From Promethearchaeota archaeon (GTDB lineage Archaea; Asgardarchaeota; Lokiarchaeia; Sigyniarchaeales; SOKP01), in the NCBI GenBank assembly GCA_016839555.1, contig JAEOUA010000006.1, forward strand, positions 256,001 to 320,000: 64,000 nt of DNA. Reading direction: 5' to 3'. The position numbers were made by a program, and so were the translations under genes. Positions 7,512 to 56,205 of this stretch are shown here, piece after piece. Under the pieces are notes generated by a model. It was not told where the DNA came from. It saw nothing but the letters and a program-made list of their open reading frames with translations, and did not search any database. Within the stretch, counting starts at the first letter, position 1. Each line of letters starts with the position of its first letter.

Positions 7512-9422
7512 ATGGGAAAAATTATTGGTATTGACTTAGGAACTTCTAACTCTGCAGCCGCTGTATTAAGCGGAGGGAGTCCAGAGATTATTCCTAGTAA
7601 AGAAGGAGTAACATTATACGGAAAAGCGTTTCCATCGGTAGTTGCATTCACCAAGGATGGACAAAGAATAGTTGGAGAACCTGCAAGACGACAAGCGATA
7701 TCTAATCCAGAGAGAACAATTACTGGTATTAAAAGGAAGATGGGAACTTCTTATACTGTAGAGATTGACGGTAAAGACTATACACCACAGGAAATTTCAG
7801 CAATGATCTTACGAAAAATAAAAGAAGACGCAAGCGATTATTTGGGAGAAGAAGTAACTGACGTGATTATCACCGTTCCTGCGTATTTTAATGATAATCA
7901 AAGACAAGCAACCAAGGATGCAGGTAAAATTGCGGGATTTAATGTTCGAAGATTAATCAATGAGCCTACTGCTGCTGCGGTGGCATTTGGATTAGATAAG
8001 AAAGGACAACACCTTAACATCGCAGTATTAGACTTAGGAGGTGGTACATTCGATGTTACCATTATGGAAATGGACGATCGAGTCTTTGAAGTTATTTCTA
8101 CTGCAGGCGACACTCAATTGGGAGGTCGCGATATGGATGATTTGTTAGTGGATTACATTGTCGAGGACTTTAAGAAACAGGAAGGAATCGATTTAAAAGA
8201 AGATAAGATGGCTTTACAGAGAGTTAAAGAAGCCGCAGAAAAAGCTAAAATCGAGCTCTCAACAGTTTTAAAGACCGAGATTAACTTACCATACATAACT
8301 GCTACAAATACTGGACCAAAACATCTCACTATGGAAATTACAAGAGCGAAGTTAGAGCAATTAATCCAACCAGTTTTAAAAAGATTGGAAGGACCAATTA
8401 AGAAAGCAATAAGAGATGCGGGGATGAAGAGTGAAGAAATTGATAAGGTGATCCTTGTTGGCGGACCGACTAGAATGCCTTCTGTACAAGAAAAATTCAA
8501 GGAATTTTTAGGTACAAAACCGGAGGGAGGAATTGATCCGATGGAATGTGTCGCGATGGGAGCTGCTATTCAAGGAGGAGTGCTTACCGGCGAAGTTAAA
8601 GACTTACTTCTATTAGATGTGACACCTTTATCTTTAGGAGTAGAAACCCTTGGTGGCGTATTTACGAAATTGATTGATCGAAACACCACAATTCCAACGC
8701 AAGCGACTGAAACATTTACTACAGCTGCCGACAATCAAACAGCAGTCGAAATCAATGTATTACAAGGAGAACGTCCACAAGCGAAAGATAATATTTCTTT
8801 AGGAAAATTTCATTTAACGGGAATTCCACCTGCTCCACGAGGAATACCACAAATTAAAGTGAGTTTTGATATAGATGCTGATGGGATATTGAATGTGACT
8901 GCTCAGGATAAAGCGACTGGTAAATCTCAATCTATTACCATTACTGCCTCTACTAAGATGAATGATGACGAGATTGAGCAAAAAGTCAGAGAAGCAGAGC
9001 GATATGCTGAAGAAGATAAAAAATTCAAAGAACTTGTTGAAACGAGAAATATGGGTGAATCTTTAGTTTATCAAGCGGAGAAAATCCTAAAAGAAAATGC
9101 GGGACTTGTTGGGGATCTCAAAGATAGCATTGAGAAAAAGATTGAAAATCTTAAGGATGTTTTGCAATCTGACAGTAAGCAAAAGATTCAGAGCGCGATT
9201 GACGAATTACAGAAAGCTTTACATGAAGTCTCTTCGAGGATGTATGGTCAAGGTCAGCAACCAGGACAATCATATCAAGGCGCACCTCCTGGAGGAATGG
9301 GAGGAACTCCAGGATCTACCTATAATACTGGAGGATCAAAAAAAACTCAGGACGAGATAGAAGAAGAGAAGTATAGAAGAGCCACAGGTCAAGACGACGT
9401 CGTAGACGCCGATTATGAGTAG
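7512..9422 (+). CDS. dnaK: Chaperone DnaK (Hsp70)
   Basis: [44 protein letters not shown]. Confidence 0.99.
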
Positions 9423-15141: not shown

Positions 15142-17799
15142 ATGAGTAAAGTAGATAATCTAAATAAATTAAATCAACCTTGGACAAGATCTAAAGAAGA
15201 AATCTCAGAACTCTTAAAGGTGGATCCTTCTAGGGGCCTAACAGACATAGAAGCGAAAAAGCGATTGGAAACCTTTGGTCCCAACCAACTTGAAGAGGAG
15301 AGAAAGGTGAGTTTTCTAAAAGTATTGGTTCATGAAATATTTGAACCAATGATACTTCTTTTATTTGGAGTAGGGATTCTTTACACGTTATTCGGTATAT
15401 TCTTTAAGACGGGAGATATTTATGATGCGATTACAATTTTTGTTATCATTGCAGTTCTGGTATTTGTAGAAATCTATAATGAATATCGTGCTAAAAAAAC
15501 TATAGCATCATTAAAAAAATTAGCAGAACCGGAAGTTAACGTCCTCCGAGATAATAGCATTAAAACTATTAAAACCGAAGAATTAATTCCTGGAGATATT
15601 ATTTATTTGAATGTGGGAAAAAAAGTCCCTGCAGATGTAAGATTATTAGAAGCATATGGTTTGCAAATAGATGAATCTCCCCTTACAGGAGAATCTACTC
15701 CGGTAACTAAACAGGTAGATGATGTTTTGAAAGATGATACAGATCTAATGGAAAGAAATAATATGGCATTTGCTGGAACTACGGCGGTTAAGGGAAAGGG
15801 AAAGGGACTCATTGTGGCAACAGCGATGGATACAGAATTAGGAAAAATTGCAGGATTGACAAAAACAATAAAAGAACCAAAAACGCCATTACAGCTCGCT
15901 ATGAAACAATTATCATTGTGGCTTGTAGGGGTTGCATTATTTTTTGCAATTTTAATCCCGGTGATAGGGATCATTCGTAATCCATCAGAATGGTATGAAA
16001 TGGTTTTAACAGGATTAAGTCTTTCTTTTGCCACGATTCCAGAAGAATTGCCGATTATTATCACAATTGTGTTAGCATTAGGATCTTATGCTCTAACTAA
16101 GAATAATGCATTAGTAAAATATTTGAGGACTGCTGAAACTTTGGGAAGTGTAACGGTAATTGCAACTGATAAAACGGGCACTTTAACTAAAAATGAGATG
16201 AAACTGAGTCAGATTTATTCTGATAATGAAATAGTTCAATTAAATGGTAAAAGTTTATCTGAAGGGCAAAAAAAAATATTAGAAATTGGAGCATTGGTAA
16301 ATGACGTATTAATTGATATACAAGAGGGGAAATATTCCTATAAAGGGGATCCTATGGAAATTGCACTAATTAAAGCGGCTAAGGAAGCTCAATTGTCCTA
16401 TTCAGACCTCATTAAAAAATATGAACTGAAACGGGAGTTTACTTTTGATAATAAACGAATGATGATGTCACAAATATATAAAATGAACGGTAATTATACA
16501 TTATTTTTAAAGGGTGCCACTGAAGAAATTCTTACCAGAGCAAATCAAATCTTCTCTAATGGATCGTTAAAACAATTAAATAACGAGATTAAGGAGCAAA
16601 TATTAGAAAAAGTTGAAACCATGGCAGGAGAAGGCTTACGAGTATTAGGTTTTGCCTATAAAGAACTAGAAAATTCAGAACTCTCTCAAGAAGAAGCGGA
16701 GCAAGATCTGATATTTGTGGGTATTGGAGGATTTATAGATCCTCCCAGAGAAGAAGTAAAAGATGCCATTGAAGCATGTAGGAATGCAGGTATTAAAGTT
16801 AAAATGATAACAGGAGATTATGAGAAAACAGCACGAATAATAGCTGATCAACTAGGTATCGAGGTGAAAAACGTGCGTCTCGGAAAGGAGATAGACGCAA
16901 TGGGTGAAGAACTCTTAAAAAACGAAGTTAATCAAGTAAACGTGTTTGCCAGAACAACTCCCGAGCATAAATTAAAGATTGTAACTGCTCTAAAAGAAAA
17001 TAATGAGCGAGTAGCTGTTACTGGTGATGGAATTAATGATGCTCCAGCTCTTAAGAAAGCAGATATTGGTGTGGCAATGGGAGTGAGTGGTACCGATGTA
17101 GCGAGAGAATCTGCCGACATGGTACTATTAGATGATAATTTTGCGACTATCACTCTCGCAGTAAAACAAGGAAGAAAATTATACGATAATTTGCGGAAAG
17201 GAGTAAGATATTATCTTTCAGTCAAAATGGCCTTAATATTTATATTTCTCTTACCTATAATTTTTGGAGTTCAATTACCCTTTGCACCGATTCAAATCAT
17301 TTTATTAGAATTATTTATGGATTTAGCTGCTTCAGCGACCTTCGTTGTTGAACCGAGCGAAACTGATGTGATGAAGTTACCTCCCCGGGATCCTGAAGTG
17401 AAATTTATGGATAGGGAGATGAATTTAGGAATACTTATGGGAGGGTTAAGTTTGATTGGAGCTGTATTGATTATCTATTTCGCATCTCTTCCTATAGTTG
17501 ATGAAGAAACTGCAAGAACAATCGCCTTTGCTACTTGGATGGTAAGTCATGTATTTTTAGCCTTTAATATGAGAACCATGAGAGATCCCTTGATAAAAGT
17601 AGGGTTTTTCTCTAATAAATTCATGATCCTTTGGGCAATTGGAGCAATTGGAGTTACTATTCTATTTATCTACGTTCCCGTTTTACAAGATCTATTGCTT
17701 GTTACAGAAATTGATCCAATTATTTGGCTTGGCATATTCGGAATTTCGATCGCATTCAGTTTTTGGATGGAAATAGTTAAAATATTATTAAAAAAATAA
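15142..17799 (+). CDS. Cation-transporting P-type ATPase (type II, Ca2+-like)
   Basis: TGES, PEEL, DKTGTLT, DPPR, MITGD, GDGIND. Confidence 0.95.
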   Translation: MSKVDNLNKLNQPWTRSKEEISELLKVDPSRGLTDIEAKKRLETFGPNQLEEERKVSFLKVLVHEIFEPMILLLFGVGILYTLFGIFFKTGDIYDAITIFVIIAVLVFVEIYNEYRAKKTIASLKKLAEPEVNVLRDNSIKTIKTEELIPGDIIYLNVGKKVPADVRLLEAYGLQIDESPLTGESTPVTKQVDDVLKDDTDLMERNNMAFAGTTAVKGKGKGLIVATAMDTELGKIAGLTKTIKEPKTPLQLAMKQLSLWLVGVALFFAILIPVIGIIRNPSEWYEMVLTGLSLSFATIPEELPIIITIVLALGSYALTKNNALVKYLRTAETLGSVTVIATDKTGTLTKNEMKLSQIYSDNEIVQLNGKSLSEGQKKILEIGALVNDVLIDIQEGKYSYKGDPMEIALIKAAKEAQLSYSDLIKKYELKREFTFDNKRMMMSQIYKMNGNYTLFLKGATEEILTRANQIFSNGSLKQLNNEIKEQILEKVETMAGEGLRVLGFAYKELENSELSQEEAEQDLIFVGIGGFIDPPREEVKDAIEACRNAGIKVKMITGDYEKTARIIADQLGIEVKNVRLGKEIDAMGEELLKNEVNQVNVFARTTPEHKLKIVTALKENNERVAVTGDGINDAPALKKADIGVAMGVSGTDVARESADMVLLDDNFATITLAVKQGRKLYDNLRKGVRYYLSVKMALIFIFLLPIIFGVQLPFAPIQIILLELFMDLAASATFVVEPSETDVMKLPPRDPEVKFMDREMNLGILMGGLSLIGAVLIIYFASLPIVDEETARTIAFATWMVSHVFLAFNMRTMRDPLIKVGFFSNKFMILWAIGAIGVTILFIYVPVLQDLLLVTEIDPIIWLGIFGISIAFSFWMEIVKILLKK

Positions 17800-19792: not shown

Positions 19793-20398
19793 TTACCAAA
19801 TTTCGAATTTCTCATCAAGTTTGCCCTTAAATACTATTAAATATGGTATCAGTAAGTCCCATATGGATTGCAGGATATTAAAGACAAATGCAAATAAAAT
19901 CCATCCACCAATCCCCTCCATTGATCCAGTAATATATGGGTAAACAATAATATTTAATGGAATCATAATCCCTAATCTTAAGAGAATTGAAAGAACTCCT
20001 ACTATTGCGTATTTTTTAGGATTTTTTAGTTTTTCACTGCCATATCCATCCTTTTTATAAAGTTTTAGAATAATAGTGGGTCCAATAATCATGGGAATGG
20101 TAGCTGCGAATTTTAAGAAGGGTCCTAATGGTGCGAAAGGATCAAATGGCATTAATCCTAACATACCAATTATAGAGCATAAAATTCCTGCTAATGGTCC
20201 AAATAACTGAAAACATAATACCCATATTATTGAAACTGGATCAAAATATGCAAATCCTAAGGGATGTCGAGGTATAAACGCAGCTATAAAAGAAATAGCT
20301 ATTGATAATCCTCCGAATATTGCAGCCCCAACTATTTTCAAAGTTAATTGAGACTTAGCGCTCCTTACAGTTTCTATTTCTTGTGTTTCTTCACTCAA
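19793..20398 (-). CDS. ECF transporter S-component-like membrane protein
   Basis: About 6 TM segments, FDPVSI...LFGP motif. Confidence 0.7.
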   Translation of the reverse strand: MSEETQEIETVRSAKSQLTLKIVGAAIFGGLSIAISFIAAFIPRHPLGFAYFDPVSIIWVLCFQLFGPLAGILCSIIGMLGLMPFDPFAPLGPFLKFAATIPMIIGPTIILKLYKKDGYGSEKLKNPKKYAIVGVLSILLRLGIMIPLNIIVYPYITGSMEGIGGWILFAFVFNILQSIWDLLIPYLIVFKGKLDEKFEIW

Positions 20399-20661: not shown

Positions 20662-21561
20662 TTAGATATTATATATATTTGCAGCGTTTTCTCCTAGGAT
20701 CATCTCTTTTTCTTCTTTATTTAACTCCGGCAATCCCATTAATTTCAAAGGAGGAGGCAATTTTAATTTTTTAATCCCCTCTACCCACTCCTTTAATGAG
20801 ACTATTGGCGTAAATAATGGCCAATCTGAACCAAATAGCACTTTTTTAATCCCACATCCTAATTTTGCTTGTGCAAGAGTTTGCATCAGAGCCACAGGAG
20901 CAAACTTGAATTGTCCCTCCCAACCTGAAATATCAAAATAAATGTTAAAATTTTTTGTGGCTACGGAAAGTGCTTCACTTATCCAAGGATTTCCTACATG
21001 AGCCATTATTATTTTAAGATCTGGAAAGTCTATCGCAACTTTATCGAGGTTAACGGGATGACAATATTTTAAATAAGTTCCAGGAGGGGGTGCTCCGGTA
21101 TGACACAAAATAATTGCTCCAAGTTCTTGCGCACGTTCATAGAATGGATAATAGGAATAATCATCGGGAAAAAAACCTGTTTGAGGCCATAATTTTACAC
21201 CTCTCATACCTAATTCATTCATACATCTATCAAGCTCTTGAATACCTTCTTTGCCTCTTCTAGGATCAATCCCTGCCAAACCTATCAACCTATCTGGATA
21301 TTCTTGTATAAGATTTGCCACATAATCATTATATCCCTTATATGGAACTTTACCTCTAAAAAGAAATCCATAGTCTATTCCAACGATCACAGTTTTATCT
21401 ATTCCTGCTTCATCCATTTCTCGAATCAATCGCTCCACGGTAGCATTAAATAATTGAGAAGGATCAAAATCTTTTCGAGCGCATATATCTAATATGATTT
21501 TCCTTAATTCTTCTGACATTAATTCTTCTTCCCAAATATGACAATGAGCATCTATTATCAA
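20662..21561 (-). CDS. Amidohydrolase family 2 protein
   Basis: IDAHCH, HTG, AHVG, FGSDWP. Confidence 0.9.
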   Translation of the reverse strand: MIIDAHCHIWEEELMSEELRKIILDICARKDFDPSQLFNATVERLIREMDEAGIDKTVIVGIDYGFLFRGKVPYKGYNDYVANLIQEYPDRLIGLAGIDPRRGKEGIQELDRCMNELGMRGVKLWPQTGFFPDDYSYYPFYERAQELGAIILCHTGAPPPGTYLKYCHPVNLDKVAIDFPDLKIIMAHVGNPWISEALSVATKNFNIYFDISGWEGQFKFAPVALMQTLAQAKLGCGIKKVLFGSDWPLFTPIVSLKEWVEGIKKLKLPPPLKLMGLPELNKEEKEMILGENAANIYNI

Positions 21562-31041: not shown

Positions 31042-31761
31042 TTATTTAGTTCCACTTAAGAATTGTGCTATTTCATCTTTAGTGGCAACCGTGAATTTTT
31101 TATCTTCGATCTTAATATAGACAAGGCGAGTGTTTTCTTTTGTTGCTTCTTCATCAGTTGCGGATTTTAATGCATCTAAGGTTAAATGCACCAAATCGTT
31201 AAATCCCAGGCTTTCGCTATAATTTTCACGTAAATATTCTCGTGCAGCGGCTTCACCATTACCCATCGCATACGCTTTAAATGAACGATAAATTCCGCTA
31301 GGAGAAACCGTATAGATTTGAGTGCCCATGGAATCAATACCAATGAAAAATAATGCGCAACCCCAGGGTCTAATTCCTCCATATTGGGTATATTGTTGAA
31401 TGACATCCGCCACATCTTTCACCAGCATACTTAAACGGACAGGCTCATCATATGTTAATCGATATGTTTGCGCTTGGACTCGAGTATAGCCAATAAGAGT
31501 GCGAGAATCAGCGTGAAGGCCCGAAATTGCTACGCCTATATGTTCATCTATTTGAAATATTTTGTCTATTTCATCACCATCCATCAATGGTGAAGCAATT
31601 TTAATTTGAGCTGCTAAGCATACCGCATTCTTGGATTTTGCTGCTACCGCCAGAGTTCCTCGTCGAACAGCTTCTAATGCATACTCTACTTGATATAACC
31701 GACCTTCTGGGCTAAATACCGTTAATGCCCTGTCATATTTAAGTTGACCTCCACCAAACAT
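31042..31761 (-). CDS. psmA: Proteasome alpha subunit
   Basis: YDRALTVFSPEGRLYQVEYA, YTQYGGIRPWG. Confidence 0.96.
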   Translation of the reverse strand: MFGGGQLKYDRALTVFSPEGRLYQVEYALEAVRRGTLAVAAKSKNAVCLAAQIKIASPLMDGDEIDKIFQIDEHIGVAISGLHADSRTLIGYTRVQAQTYRLTYDEPVRLSMLVKDVADVIQQYTQYGGIRPWGCALFFIGIDSMGTQIYTVSPSGIYRSFKAYAMGNGEAAAREYLRENYSESLGFNDLVHLTLDALKSATDEEATKENTRLVYIKIEDKKFTVATKDEIAQFLSGTK

Positions 31762-31960
31762 TATTTAGTCACGTTAAGGTAATTTTTATTTTATAATTAC
31801 TATGAAAAATGATATGTTTAATTTTAATTTTTAGATTTTCATTTATTAGTGAGTATCTATTCCTTTTAAATTAAGATTCACATACATTTATATATTGATT
31901 TTTGCTCACTATTATTATCCCACTTGAGCTAAATAAACCACTTTTTAGAGAAAGAACAAT

Positions 31961-32509
31961 TTAAATCTTACCTAAGCTTTTTAAGATACCTCTTGTAATC
32001 TCTTTAAAGATTTTTTCCACGTTTCTCCCGTCTTTTGCGCTAGTTTCATAATAAGAGAGTGAGCCTAATTCTTCTTTAAAAGCCTCTCCTTCTTGTTTGG
32101 ATACTTCTCGCTCCCCATTCTCAGCTAAGTCCAGCTTATTTCCTACTAAAACGCTTGTTTTTTCTCCGATTACTTTTTGAACTTCATTTTGCCAATTGGT
32201 TAGATTTTCAAAGGAGCTTCTTCGAGTTAAATCATGGACATAAATCAAACCAGTGGCACCACGATAAAAAGGAGGACGTACAAATGAGAAGTGTTTTTGA
32301 CCTGCTAAGTCCCACAATTGGAGTTTAATCTCGTAATTAGGATAATCCTTAAGCCTGACAGTTTTAGTTGAGAAGTTAGAACCAATAGTCATTATATAAT
32401 TGTCTTTGAACTTATTTTCACAATAACGCAAAACGAGCGATGTCTTCCCAACTCCACCATCTCCTAGAAGACATACTTTATATATGAAGCTTTTCTTCTC
32501 AGTGCTAAT
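31961..32509 (-). CDS. Rab-like small GTPase (182 aa; proposed ATT start at 32509)
   Basis: G1 GDGGVGKT lies upstream of the ORF-track start; TIGSNF, WDLAGQ, GNKLD, ETSAK; in-frame TAG immediately before the ATT. Confidence 0.9.
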   Translation of the reverse strand: MSTEKKSFIYKVCLLGDGGVGKTSLVLRYCENKFKDNYIMTIGSNFSTKTVRLKDYPNYEIKLQLWDLAGQKHFSFVRPPFYRGATGLIYVHDLTRRSSFENLTNWQNEVQKVIGEKTSVLVGNKLDLAENGEREVSKQEGEAFKEELGSLSYYETSAKDGRNVEKIFKEITRGILKSLGKI

Positions 32510-32515
32510 CTATAT

Positions 32516-32520
32516 TCACC
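32516..32520 (-). promoter_or_regulatory. Shine-Dalgarno GGTGA, 6 nt upstream of ATT
   Basis: Same motif and spacing as at canonical starts in the window (e.g. 21561 TTG). Confidence 0.7.
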
Positions 32521-32865
32521 TTTTTGAATATACTTTACTCTCAGTTAAATTTTGAAACGTATAATTTGTAAAAGTGGGGAATTATGATATTTCTTAAGAA
32601 AATATATTTCTTATACACTATAATAATAATTCCTAAATTAAAATTTTTTTTTTTTACCTTAAAAAGATATTTATAACAAATCAGTTGGATCTTTTCAAAT
32701 CCAATATTAATTCCTTTTTAATAGAATTTTATATTAAATGCATCAGATAGAAAAATAAGTAAAGATAGAATCTTTTTACTTTAAAAAAATAATATTAATA
32801 ATAGCTACTTCATAAAAATTAATTAAACACAGTTTAGTCATTCTATTGAAATAGAGTAAGGAATT

Positions 32866-33633
32866 GTGATTCCTATGATAAATCTTGAGAAAAAAATAGA
32901 ACAATTTGCTCAGGTAATACAAGAGGCAGATAATATTGTAGCGTTAACGGGCGCAGGGATGAGTACTGAGTCTGGAATTCCCGATTTTCGCTCTCCTGGC
33001 ACTGGTTTATGGATCAAGGTGGATCCTGACGAAATCGCCAGTATTCATTCATTTGTTGCAAATCCCGGCAGAAATATAAGCTTTTTATTAGATTTGGGAA
33101 TGAAAATTTTCAGAGCGAAACCTAACAAAGGCCATAAGGCACTTACCAAACTTCAAAAAATGGGGAAACTTAAGGGTGTAATGACACAAAACATAGATGG
33201 CTTACATCAGCGAGCCCATACTGAAAATGTTATTGAATTACATGGGACTGCAAATGAGGCAAAATGTATGCGATGTAATGAAGTTTACCCAATAACGGAA
33301 TTTGTAAATCAATTCTTAGCGGGAGAAACTCAACCTTCGTGTAAAAAATGTAATGGCTTGTTAAAGCCCAATGCGATATTCTTTGGAGAACCATTAGAAA
33401 ATGAGGTCCTTCGTAAAGCAGATGAGTTGGTCGGCAATTGTGATTTATTAATTGTGTTAGGTTCTTCCTTATTGGTGTATCCAGTTGCGTTTTATCCTCA
33501 GCGAGCAATCGCCTGTGGAGCTAAATTAGGGATCATTAATATACAAGAAACTCCAATGGATCTGCAAGCAGATATAGTAATTCAAGAGAAAATTGGGGAA
33601 GTACTCCCAAAAATAGTTGATCTTGTGGAATAG
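32866..33633 (+). CDS. cobB: NAD-dependent protein deacylase, Sir2 family
   Basis: GAGMSTESGIPDFR, QNIDGLH, HG, two CxxC, GSSL. Confidence 0.95.
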   Translation: MIPMINLEKKIEQFAQVIQEADNIVALTGAGMSTESGIPDFRSPGTGLWIKVDPDEIASIHSFVANPGRNISFLLDLGMKIFRAKPNKGHKALTKLQKMGKLKGVMTQNIDGLHQRAHTENVIELHGTANEAKCMRCNEVYPITEFVNQFLAGETQPSCKKCNGLLKPNAIFFGEPLENEVLRKADELVGNCDLLIVLGSSLLVYPVAFYPQRAIACGAKLGIINIQETPMDLQADIVIQEKIGEVLPKIVDLVE

Positions 33634-42982: not shown

Positions 42983-43076
42983 GAATATATACGTATATTA
43001 CTATGTTTTTTTTAAAAACCTGTTTCATTACTTCTTAGAAAATATTTTCAAAAAATAGTTTAGAAGGTGAAAATAA

Positions 43077-43886
43077 ATTTCCCACTCGTTTAAATATAAA
43101 ATATTATTAGGTGGGATAAACGATCCAAAGAAATTTCCTATTTTCGCTGATTCTAAATTTGATAAAAATGATTTTTTTAATATTGGTATCTCTTTAAACT
43201 CCTTAGAATGCTACAGTAATTTTGGGGATTTATATTTATTCATTTTTTGGCATATTAACCTTAAAGAAGAGCGATTCAAATTTCTGATACCTTCATTCTT
43301 CGTCGGTTCCAAGGCTGCAATCTTATGTATAGATAAATCGAATTATGATTCTTTAGAACAAGTGAATCATTTCATAAAAATCATTAAAGAAAGAGAGGAG
43401 GATATTTCAATCTTTATTTTGAGCTTTCAATCGAAACAATCTTATAAAGAAGTCTTTGAACAAGATATATTAGATCTAATTGAAAAATACAATATTAGGA
43501 GATATTATTCAAATAAATTTGAAAATGAAAAAGAGAAATTGAACTATATACAAAAAAAGAAATTTTTTACATTTTTAATTAAAGAATTGAGTAGAAATAA
43601 AGAATGGCAAGATCGAAATCTTTCAATTATATTTCCTACAGAGGTAGAAGATTATCAAGAATTTAGAAATTCCTACAATATTTGTCCCATTTGTAAAAAT
43701 AAAAATCATCCTGAAAGTTTAAAAAATTTCTATTTCAGTAAACAACACGACCTAATGATCTTGCGAGATAAATTTTTAAAACTTCAAGAGATATTGAAAG
43801 ATAAGTTAAAAGATTTAAATATAAATCTTGGAATTCCATGCTGTAATTGTTATAAAATACTTCTTGGTAATAAGAAATCTACATAA
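43077..43886 (+). CDS. Rab-like pseudoGTPase fused to a C-terminal Zn finger (269 aa; proposed ATT start)
   Basis: Frame is open 95 codons upstream of the ORF-track start; degenerate Rab motifs; CPIC...CCNC; GGTGA 6 nt before ATT. Confidence 0.75.
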   Translation: MSHSFKYKILLGGINDPKKFPIFADSKFDKNDFFNIGISLNSLECYSNFGDLYLFIFWHINLKEERFKFLIPSFFVGSKAAILCIDKSNYDSLEQVNHFIKIIKEREEDISIFILSFQSKQSYKEVFEQDILDLIEKYNIRRYYSNKFENEKEKLNYIQKKKFFTFLIKELSRNKEWQDRNLSIIFPTEVEDYQEFRNSYNICPICKNKNHPESLKNFYFSKQHDLMILRDKFLKLQEILKDKLKDLNINLGIPCCNCYKILLGNKKST

Positions 43887-54775: not shown

Positions 54776-54967
54776 TTATTGTCTGACCATAGTAGCTCCA
54801 CAACTGGGACATTTTGTTTGATAGCATGGAACTCCAACTTGATGTGGAACGGTCTTACCACAGTTAGGACAGACACAATTGCCTCCAGGCCCAGCTGCAT
54901 ATGGGCCTCCACCTCTTCCTCTCCCCCCTCCTCCAGGGGGGCCTCTACCTCCACCTCTTCTACTCAC
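54776..54967 (-). CDS. Small Gly/Arg-rich zinc-binding protein
   Basis: GGAGGTG SD; RGG-rich N-terminus; GPGGNCVCPNCG..H..GVPC...CPSCG. Confidence 0.85.
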   Translation of the reverse strand: MSRRGGGRGPPGGGGRGRGGGPYAAGPGGNCVCPNCGKTVPHQVGVPCYQTKCPSCGATMVRQ

Positions 54968-55079
54968 AATTTACACCTCCATAAATATTTTAATAATTAA
55001 ATTGGTTTTCATAATATGAATAATTATTCATAATTAAAAATGTTTACTTTTTAATTTAAATATTGAGTAAAAATAAAGA

Positions 55080-56036
55080 TTATTTCGCAAAAATTCTTCT
55101 CAGTTCGCCGATCGTGGTACTATGTTCAGCATACACGTCGTGGGGATGGATACTTTCGTAGCTTTCAACCTTGAAATTTATTTGAAAATCGTCATCGAGA
55201 TTTGGGAAATCACGTTCAATGAAAATTTTTGCCATTTGTCTTATGATATCCTCAGCGAATAAGGGTTTAAGATGAGCAGTCCTTATTAATTCCGCTTCTT
55301 CGGGTCGTTTTAATACAGATTGAATCTTGCCAGACATACTATCTTCAATTACATCAATTAATTGGAGAACATCAATTTTGTGATTTTTTAAATCTTTTAT
55401 TTGAAGTTGGATAGTTCCTTTCGCACGTTGGTTATGAGATGCGAAGGGAAGAATATTTAATAATTTTTTAAGATCTTCATCAGAAATGTTGATATCCTTT
55501 CTTGTTTTCAGTACTTCTTCTGTGAATTCTTGGGACATTTCTTTAGCACATGGACAGCAGCTCATTCCCAGTGCTGTGGCGCCAATAAAATAAGTAAAAT
55601 CGATCTCTCCCTCTTTATTTTTATTTGCTCTGGTACAGGAACTAATATCGTACGATTTTTGGATATTTCCGTGAGATTCTTCCCTCACTTGCACAATTAT
55701 TTTACCTTCTAGTTTTACCTCTACTTTTGAGGTATAGGGATGTCTTTTTAATAATTTTCTTGCAATACGGTCTCCTACTAGTTCGATAGTGGGTGTAGGT
55801 TTAAAAATAACTTCATTAATTATTTCTTCTATAGTTTCCGCTGTTCGAGACATATGAATTCCTCGCTGTTGAGCTGGGAGAGAAATTAAAGCTGAAATTT
55901 GGGGATAGAATGAATATTTTTTATTCTCTTGAACGATTTCTACCTTTTTTTCAACATTTATAATACCAACTTTGTCGATTGGCAATTTAAACTCAACAAC
56001 TTCCGAATCTTGAAGATCTTTTTTAAATTGATGTAT
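55080..56036 (-). CDS. mptA: GTP cyclohydrolase IV/FolE2 (proposed ATA start at 56036)
   Basis: RGIHMSR, CCPC, SHNQR, LKRPEE, ESIHPH; conserved D(L/V)Q motif lies upstream of the ORF-track TTG. Confidence 0.92.
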   Translation of the reverse strand: MHQFKKDLQDSEVVEFKLPIDKVGIINVEKKVEIVQENKKYSFYPQISALISLPAQQRGIHMSRTAETIEEIINEVIFKPTPTIELVGDRIARKLLKRHPYTSKVEVKLEGKIIVQVREESHGNIQKSYDISSCTRANKNKEGEIDFTYFIGATALGMSCCPCAKEMSQEFTEEVLKTRKDINISDEDLKKLLNILPFASHNQRAKGTIQLQIKDLKNHKIDVLQLIDVIEDSMSGKIQSVLKRPEEAELIRTAHLKPLFAEDIIRQMAKIFIERDFPNLDDDFQINFKVESYESIHPHDVYAEHSTTIGELRRIFAK

Positions 56037-56205
56037 TTTTCATCACCAATTTCTGATATTAAATCACTATTCTAGACTAGAAAAAGATGTATTAATTTTA
56101 ATATTTCAGATTAATATAAAATGAAATTAATATGATCAATAATTATTGCAAACCAGAATTTTATGAATGGTTTAAAAGAGCCTTTGATTAAAGTAGATAA
56201 GATTT

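Follow-up and report, generated by a model that had tools for sequence, protein, structure and literature searches.

NCBI translation table 11 lists ATT, ATC, ATA and CTG as alternative initiators. In Escherichia coli the infC gene, which encodes IF3, has an AUU start behind a Shine-Dalgarno (SD) sequence and is under translational autocontrol (Butler, Springer and Grunberg-Manago 1987, as cited in PMC4705826), while eukaryotic eIF1, by the account of the citing papers, controls stringency towards near-cognate codons and autoregulates via its own weak start context (Ivanov et al. 2010, cited in PMC6237735 and PMC4705826). Archaeal 30S complexes without aIF1 bind AUU as well as AUG mRNAs and those with aIF1 bind AUG mRNAs only (PMC4705826), and aIF1 destabilises non-AUG complexes (PMC6237735). 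For an Asgard archaeon of the Kariarchaeaceae, a 'likely rare ATT start codon' has been proposed for AtubA (Sci Adv 2026, PMC13394414); apart from this remark, no systematic report of such starts for Asgard or other archaea was found in full-text searches of the literature. Here we describe a 64,000-nucleotide stretch of a Lokiarchaeial genome (the window, G000:C5:256001-320000; G numbers denote genome assemblies, G000 being that of the window, and C numbers contigs), in which the genes for a Rab-like small GTPase, a putative degenerate P-loop GTPase-like protein ('pseudoGTPase') and a predicted GTP cyclohydrolase (mptA) have ATT or ATA at the position of the start codon. SD-led ATT and ATA codons are very probably true translation starts and, in this Lokiarchaeial family, a conserved and normal alternative to ATG, TTG and GTG.

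The arrangement would resemble that of bacterial infC in that an SD positions a near-cognate codon for a normal initiator tRNA, and in that the gene of the factor rejecting such codons (here aIF1) itself appears to use AUU, which could provide negative feedback. Unlike the bacterial cases, which are isolated genes, it accounts for about 19% of strong-SD starts across a whole archaeal family, and the machinery on which the proposed feedback would act is of the archaeal/eukaryotic type (aIF1, aIF1A, aIF2 and non-formylated Met-tRNAi). The likeness to the eukaryotic case is that aIF1, the ortholog of eIF1, appears to be made from a weak start and that a set of genes would depend on relaxed stringency. 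By contrast with eukaryotes there is no scanning and no Kozak context, the start being positioned by SD pairing; the codons are mostly the third-position variants AUU and AUA rather than CUG, GUG and ACG; and they are the sole starts of main open reading frames (ORFs), not those of upstream ORFs or alternative isoforms. As with an ortholog of the Rab-like gene described below, the deposited model of AtubA is truncated: it lacks the first beta-strand, and the N-terminus MSEVVVV is obtained from an upstream ATT whose distance to a ribosome-binding site is plausible. That case, however, is a single gene from another Asgard lineage, which was called rare, and neither a genome-wide nor a comparative analysis accompanied it. 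Initiation of this kind is not new in principle; its unusual aspects are how frequent it is, its conservation across the lineage, the archaeal/eukaryote-type machinery and the start of the fidelity-factor gene at ATT.

The window belongs to an assembly of 3.74 Mb in 12 contigs (29-30% GC, 92% complete), which by its protein matches falls among Promethearchaeota/Lokiarchaeota metagenome-assembled genomes. The number of Ras-family matches, about 46 per genome, is in keeping with an Asgard archaeon. The original prediction placed a GGTGA six nucleotides ahead of ATT or ATA at the Rab-like, 'pseudoGTPase' and mptA genes and a GTGA at the same distance ahead of canonical starts at dnaK, a P-type ATPase gene and the genes starting at 20398 and 21561, and the letters read as stated at all seven (Table 1). 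It also pointed to an in-frame stop one or two codons upstream. Such stops are present at the three loci, where the frames read TGA ATA TAG ATT, TGA AAA TAA ATT and TGA TGA AAA ATA, respectively, but a spacer of six automatically puts the TGA of GGTGA in frame, so that this stop is not independent evidence. The claim that no ATG, GTG or TTG start can include the conserved N-terminus stood, as the first canonical in-frame codons are a TTG at codon 26 of the Rab-like gene, codon 95 of the 'pseudoGTPase' gene and codon 17 of mptA. In the Rab-like protein this TTG lies beyond the P-loop GDGGVGKT, which is retained only with ATT as the start. A Pfam scan gave a full-length Ras domain for the Rab-like protein (residues 11-176, profile positions 1-161) and a full-length GCHY-1 domain for the mptA product (residues 7-303, profile positions 3-260), on which the likely enzyme assignment of the latter is based. 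The 'pseudoGTPase' product had no match in the Pfam scan; in an alignment its LLGGINDPKK sits where paralogs or orthologs in relatives have GSRGSGKT.

By k-mer enrichment, a sub-word of GGAGGTGATC serves as the SD in this genome, and its GTGA lies 6-7 nt ahead of ATG. The sole 16S rRNA gene copy is cut at a contig end, and the anti-SD was taken from this enrichment and from general knowledge of archaea. Only a minority of genes have an SD, so the numbers for GGTGA alone were too small and that count was dropped; it was widened to RGTGA and then to any contiguous match of at least 5 nt to the SD word (a strong SD). The RGTGA count was confined to long ORFs that lack a canonical start both upstream and at spacers of 3-12 nt. 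At spacers of 5, 6, 7 and 8 nt after RGTGA, ATT was found 1, 15, 3 and 1 times and ATG 8, 50, 35 and 8 times, so that both peak at 6, while AAA, AAT, TTT and TTA showed no spacer peak in the same genome-wide count. How far the frame stays open ahead of the first canonical codon was also considered; at 30% GC this is not informative alone.

With a strong SD in the optimal register the codons were ATG (151), TTG (45), GTG (8), ATT (39) and ATA (20). In two shifted registers that served as controls, ATT was found 11 and 8 times and ATA 10 and 11 times. There was no excess of AAT (13 in the optimal register against 14 and 14 in the controls) or AAA (12 against 15 and 21). Among non-canonical codons, ATT and ATA together make up 59 of 166 in the optimal register and 40 of 396 in the control registers (Fisher p = 5e-12), and the SD matches are slightly longer at ATT/ATA than at ATG starts (p = 0.016). 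The genome-wide count at this distance from the SD thus bears out a specific ATT/ATA excess. It amounts to about 47 genes; relative to strong-SD starts this is about 19%, and relative to the whole gene set at least 1%. The statement that the lineage routinely initiates at isoleucine codons stands to this extent, and is to be narrowed in that a minority of genes is concerned and the habit is that of this family.

The second residue is serine in 10 of 20 proteins with ATT starts, against 15 of 101 with ATG starts and a background of 6.5%. This bias looks like a true N-terminal signature, and behind ATT it could reflect either N-terminal processing or an effect of the +4 context. The serine codons concerned mostly occur as ATT TCN or ATT AGC.

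Orthologs were compared in 30 related genomes, each a separate assembly, and interchange of start codons at the aligned position was seen for all three window genes, as had been anticipated for ATG, ATT and ATA, with TTG and CTG in addition in some genomes. Where the Rab-like gene has ATT-AGC, the alignment shows ATG and then a serine codon in at least six relatives; ATT-Ser is found in the window's genome, G004, G017, G010 and a contig from a JGI metagenome. In G017 and G010 it stands behind GGTGA with a stop 0 or 1 codon upstream; the JGI contig, whose Rab product is 92% identical, reads GGTGA-acaaag-ATT AGC. The codon aligned to the ATA of mptA is ATG in G005 and G001. In seven family members it is ATT and follows GGTGA, at a distance of 7 nt in G004 and G009 and of 6 nt in the other five; six of these seven genes have an in-frame stop no more than two codons ahead of the ATT. 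Sister-family genomes with an mptA match have ATG (f2, f4) or no clear start (f3). For the 'pseudoGTPase' gene the aligned codon is ATG in G002, G008, G017 and G009, TTG in G006, ATT in G004 and CTG in G007.

The same counting script was run on 0.78 Mb of G013 (same family, other genus) and on 1.19 Mb of G026, a closed genome from a sister family. In G013 there were 51 canonical codons, 8 ATT and 7 ATA, with controls of 4/2 and 2/1, an excess like that of the window's genome. G026 had 76 canonical codons, 4 ATT and 5 ATA, with controls of 3/3 and 2/2, and hence little or no excess (pooled family against G026, p = 0.015). These counts support the view that the ATT/ATA habit belongs to this family and is weak or absent in the sampled G026.

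From the genome, 28 candidates were taken, and 24 of them, together with the three window genes, were scanned against Pfam. In the Pfam cases listed in Table 1 the domain starts at profile positions 1-4 within residues 2-11, ahead of the first canonical codon, though by less in FGGY_N and in the GCHY-1 domain of mptA than in the others. An ESCRT-III/Snf7 protein has ATA behind GGGTGA-N6, with the Snf7 domain running from profile position 7 at residue 23 and the first canonical codon at 72. In the Ras, GPN, ParA, guanylate-kinase-like, receiver, FGGY and Snf7 proteins the domain leads that codon by 15-50 codons. In the single-domain response regulators with CTG (G000:C1:38290, +), ATC (G000:C7:177735, +) and ATA (G000:C5:103480, -), and in an FGGY kinase with ATC (G000:C11:82929, -), the Pfam match begins at profile position 1-2, well ahead of any canonical codon. 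CTG and ATC, judging from such domain matches, probably also serve as SD-led starts, less often than ATT and ATA.

These N-termini bear on the alternative that translation begins at the first downstream ATG, GTG or TTG, giving shorter proteins, and that the upstream frame and its SD are incidental. Public gene calling does give a 143-residue product from an internal ATG for the 92%-identical Rab ortholog, and some candidates have their first canonical codon only 2-10 codons downstream, where both starts are viable. Such products, however, would lack the P-loop in the Rab-like, GPN, ParA-like and guanylate-kinase-like proteins and the phospho-acceptor acidic residues in three receivers; aIF1 would lose its zinc knuckle and Snf7 about 50 residues. 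The stretch upstream of the canonical codon is moreover conserved as protein across genera, where it aligns with N-termini that start with ATG, and the SD lies 6 nt from ATT/ATA and not ahead of the internal codons. Downstream initiation is therefore a most improbable explanation.

Table 1 Features of the window (positions counted from its first letter) and candidate SD-led starts elsewhere in the genome; aa, amino acids; CDS, coding sequence.
Feature	Position	Strand	Start codon	First canonical codon	Remarks
SD core GGTGA, Rab-like GTPase gene	32516..32520	-			TGA (32518-32516) shares the frame of the start; genome-wide, the SD register enriched is GTGA at spacer 6-7
Probable start codon, Rab-like GTPase	32507..32509	-	ATT		Spacer atatag; in-frame TAG 32512-32510
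Rab-like small GTPase CDS, 182 aa + stop	31961..32509	-			Pfam Ras PF00071, E = 1.1e-50
SD core GGTGA, 'pseudoGTPase' gene (putative degenerate P-loop GTPase-like)	43066..43070	+
Probable start codon, 'pseudoGTPase'	43077..43079	+	ATT		Spacer aaataa; in-frame TGA 43068-43070 and TAA 43074-43076
'pseudoGTPase' CDS, 269 aa + stop	43077..43886	+		95
SD core GGTGA, mptA	56043..56047	-
Probable start codon, mptA	56034..56036	-	ATA		Spacer tgaaaa; in-frame TGA TGA 56045-56040
mptA CDS (predicted GTP cyclohydrolase, GCHY-1 family), 318 aa + stop	55080..56036	-			Pfam PF02649, E = 7.4e-58
Comparator, dnaK	7512..7514	+	ATG		GTGA-N6
Comparator, P-type ATPase	15142..15144	+	ATG		GTGA-N6
Comparator gene	20396..20398	-	TTG		GTGA-N6
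Comparator gene	21559..21561	-	TTG		GGTGA-N6
CbiA/ParA-like			ATT	39
GPN-loop ATP_bind_1			ATT	45
GFO_IDH_MocA			ATT	40
Guanylate_kin-like			ATA	56
Response_reg			ATA	35
Response_reg			CTG	27
Response_reg			ATC	52
FGGY_N			ATC	23

In the neighbourhood of the Rab-like gene, the order SIR2-family deacetylase, Rab-like GTPase, proteasome alpha subunit (31042-33633 of the window) is also found on the independent JGI contig (L090). A second proteasome alpha paralog elsewhere in the genome (G000:C12:91837, +) has an apparent ATT start at GGTGA+8; its Proteasome_A_N signature runs from residue 9, and the first canonical codon (10) lies inside it. Just 3' of mptA, a small ORF (54776-54970, -) encodes a Gly/Arg-rich N-terminus followed by a zinc-ribbon-like CPNCG...CPSCG.

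Several points weigh against initiation at ATT and ATA. The sites, their conservation, their interchange with ATG and the statistical excess all speak at the level of sequence, and no RNA run was found to contain this DNA. Of the 65 genome-wide candidates about 12 are expected as background, for example an internal ATA at C1:90293 in an ABC ATPase ORF. An in-frame GTG or TTG in or near the SD could serve as the start in the Rab-like gene of G004, in mptA of G017, G012 and G013, and in aIF1 of G005, G009, G013 and G017, and the ATT of the aIF1 gene of the window's genome follows a weak SD only (GAGTGGGA). The family contrast draws on a single sister-family genome that was sampled in part, and related genomes do not count as independent. 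Finally, in the window's own assembly, 92% complete as it is, ARAGORN run with and without introns found 28 tRNAs and none with the anticodon CAU.

Other searches of that assembly agree on this last point. The Rfam tRNA model gave 25 matches, none of them tRNA-Met; regular expressions for the initiator anticodon arm and acceptor stem returned nothing tRNA-like; and BLAST with the initiator of G013 had no match. Lowering the ARAGORN threshold produced about 2,700 false calls and was of no help. About half of the tRNAs that were recovered carry introns. In G013 an initiator tRNA-Met is encoded at G013:C27:220557-220656 (-), with anticodon CAU, the A1:U72 pair, an anticodon stem with three G:C pairs (GGG/CCC) and, following the anticodon, an intron about 20 nt long.

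It might be supposed that a dedicated second initiator tRNA, or one with an altered or modified anticodon, reads AUU and AUA cognately and perhaps inserts isoleucine. The partial tRNA set of the window's assembly (25-28 tRNAs, no tRNA-Met, many introns) leaves room for this, and the use of ATT and ATA roughly follows isoleucine codon usage. Yet G013, which shares the ATT/ATA excess, has the conventional CAU initiator with all archaeal hallmarks, and ATG, TTG and ATT swap freely among close relatives. Also in use are ATC and CTG, the latter with its mismatch to ATG at position 1, and a single tRNA wobbling on near-cognate codons accounts for this better than a dedicated reader of AUU. In the absence of aIF1, moreover, archaeal 30S complexes accept AUU with the normal initiator (PMC4705826). 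A special initiator is, on this evidence, very unlikely.

A further alternative is that ordinary ATG, GTG or TTG starts were destroyed by assembly or sequencing errors (substitutions or homopolymer indels) or by pseudogene decay, mptA having gained one extra A. The assembly is a metagenome-assembled genome with an estimated contamination of 6%, and in mptA the stretch GGTGATGAAAAATA contains an out-of-frame ATG and five consecutive A. The suggestion that deleting one A would restore the mptA start (ATG AAA ATA) is refuted by the orthologs: 10 of 14 in the family have ATT or ATG at the aligned codon without the A-run, the other four being less clear. As separate assemblies carry ATG, TTG, ATT, ATA or CTG at the same codon, the assembly-indel explanation fails, including for the A-run of mptA. 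The ATT of the Rab-like gene is common to orthologs from three other genera and the JGI contig. At the 43077 site, contigs from X1 (the probable source run, Logan assembly) and from X2 (a second sample) show 0 differences, and an X1 contig crosses the mptA start with no indel or substitution; agreement with the runs was judged from contigs and only where they cover the site, and the mptA start lies outside the X2 and X4 contigs. The ORFs are intact, with full-length Pfam matches, and the excess is restricted to ATT/ATA at the SD register. Errors or decay are thus already largely refuted, and their remaining probability is minimal. Recoding from an upstream canonical start, by stop-codon readthrough or by a programmed frameshift such as the GTG ATG in the -1/+1 frame followed by AAAAA in mptA might allow, is just as remote, given two in-frame stops within three codons upstream at all three loci, orthologs with no conserved upstream ORF or slippery site (the upstream DNA is AT-rich and unconserved except for the SD) and about 47 genes that share only an SD, a spacer of six and ATT/ATA.

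For initiation at ATT and ATA the following mechanism can be proposed. The (GGA)GGTGA box of the mRNA would pair with the 3' end of 16S rRNA and so place the 30S subunit. The ordinary initiator Met-tRNA (CAU) would then accept a near-cognate codon 6 bases (range 5-8) downstream, either ATT or ATA or, less often, ATC or CTG, each one position off ATG. The first residue of such proteins is most likely methionine, and we infer that the starts are less efficient than ATG. The level of aIF1 would set how far near-cognate codons are used, and aIF1 would limit its own synthesis, as do IF3 through the AUU of infC and eIF1 through its weak context.

The aIF1/SUI1 gene of this genome lies outside the window (G000:C6:232950-233246; SUI1 Pfam E = 4e-14) and has an ATT start. 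In 12 of 16 family genomes (orthologs L191-L214) there is no ATG, GTG or TTG between the upstream stop and the zinc-knuckle cysteine, and the conserved start in these twelve is ATT, except for ATC in G010. In 10 of the 12 it lies 8-9 nt behind (AGGTT)GTGA, a longer spacer than the genome optimum of 6-7 nt; the genes of the window's genome and of G014 have only weak SD-like motifs. In the sister families the aIF1 start is TTG, ATA or ATG.

Since aIF1 discriminates against AUU and its own gene starts at ATT, the level of aIF1 may set near-cognate use and restrict its own production, and by analogy the conserved ATT suggests an infC-like or eIF1-like feedback. A broader proposal, that of a 'stringency regulon', is tentative and somewhat less likely to hold than to fail: made from a suboptimally spaced ATT, aIF1 would limit itself to a set point that permits near-cognate starts, tuning several dozen genes at once. 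These would include small GTPases, ESCRT-III, receiver domains and aIF5A, the last being a candidate examined by Pfam and SD only, whereas aIF1, the GPN GTPase, ESCRT-III and the CTG-started receiver went through fuller tests.

The aIF1 proteins of the window's genus, and also those of G008 and G017 (and G014, as FGSGGT), have LGAGGT(I/L)RG where other relatives have CASGGTV(R/K). These proteins score lowest against the SUI1 profile (46-53 bits against 55-70). The substitution, judged from the alignment, may be a lineage-specific change in the fidelity factor.

Prodigal-type gene callers admit only ATG, GTG and TTG, and at least 1% of the genes of this family are therefore expected to be truncated or mis-started. 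That callers truncate genes had been foreseen and is borne out by the public model of the close Rab ortholog, from which the P-loop is missing. The catalytic N-terminal motifs often lost in this way include P-loops, the acidic pockets of receivers and, in aIF1, the zinc knuckle. Asgard genomes are mined for eukaryotic-signature proteins, and these are affected as predicted, clearly so for the Rab-like GTPase, ESCRT-III/Snf7 and the GPN-loop GTPase and marginally for roadblock, which possibly belongs here. The truncation biases domain inventories, phylogenies, structure predictions and expression constructs, a practical cost for which AtubA (PMC13394414) is an example. A rule for re-annotation follows: an SD, 5-8 nt, then ATT or ATA, with no canonical alternative. 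For the biology of the family, initiation at SD-led ATT and ATA codons would mean that an archaeal lineage with eukaryote-type initiation factors tolerates frequent third-position near-cognate starts, its fidelity factor among them, and that the evolution of start-codon stringency control by IF3, aIF1 and eIF1 thereby becomes directly testable.

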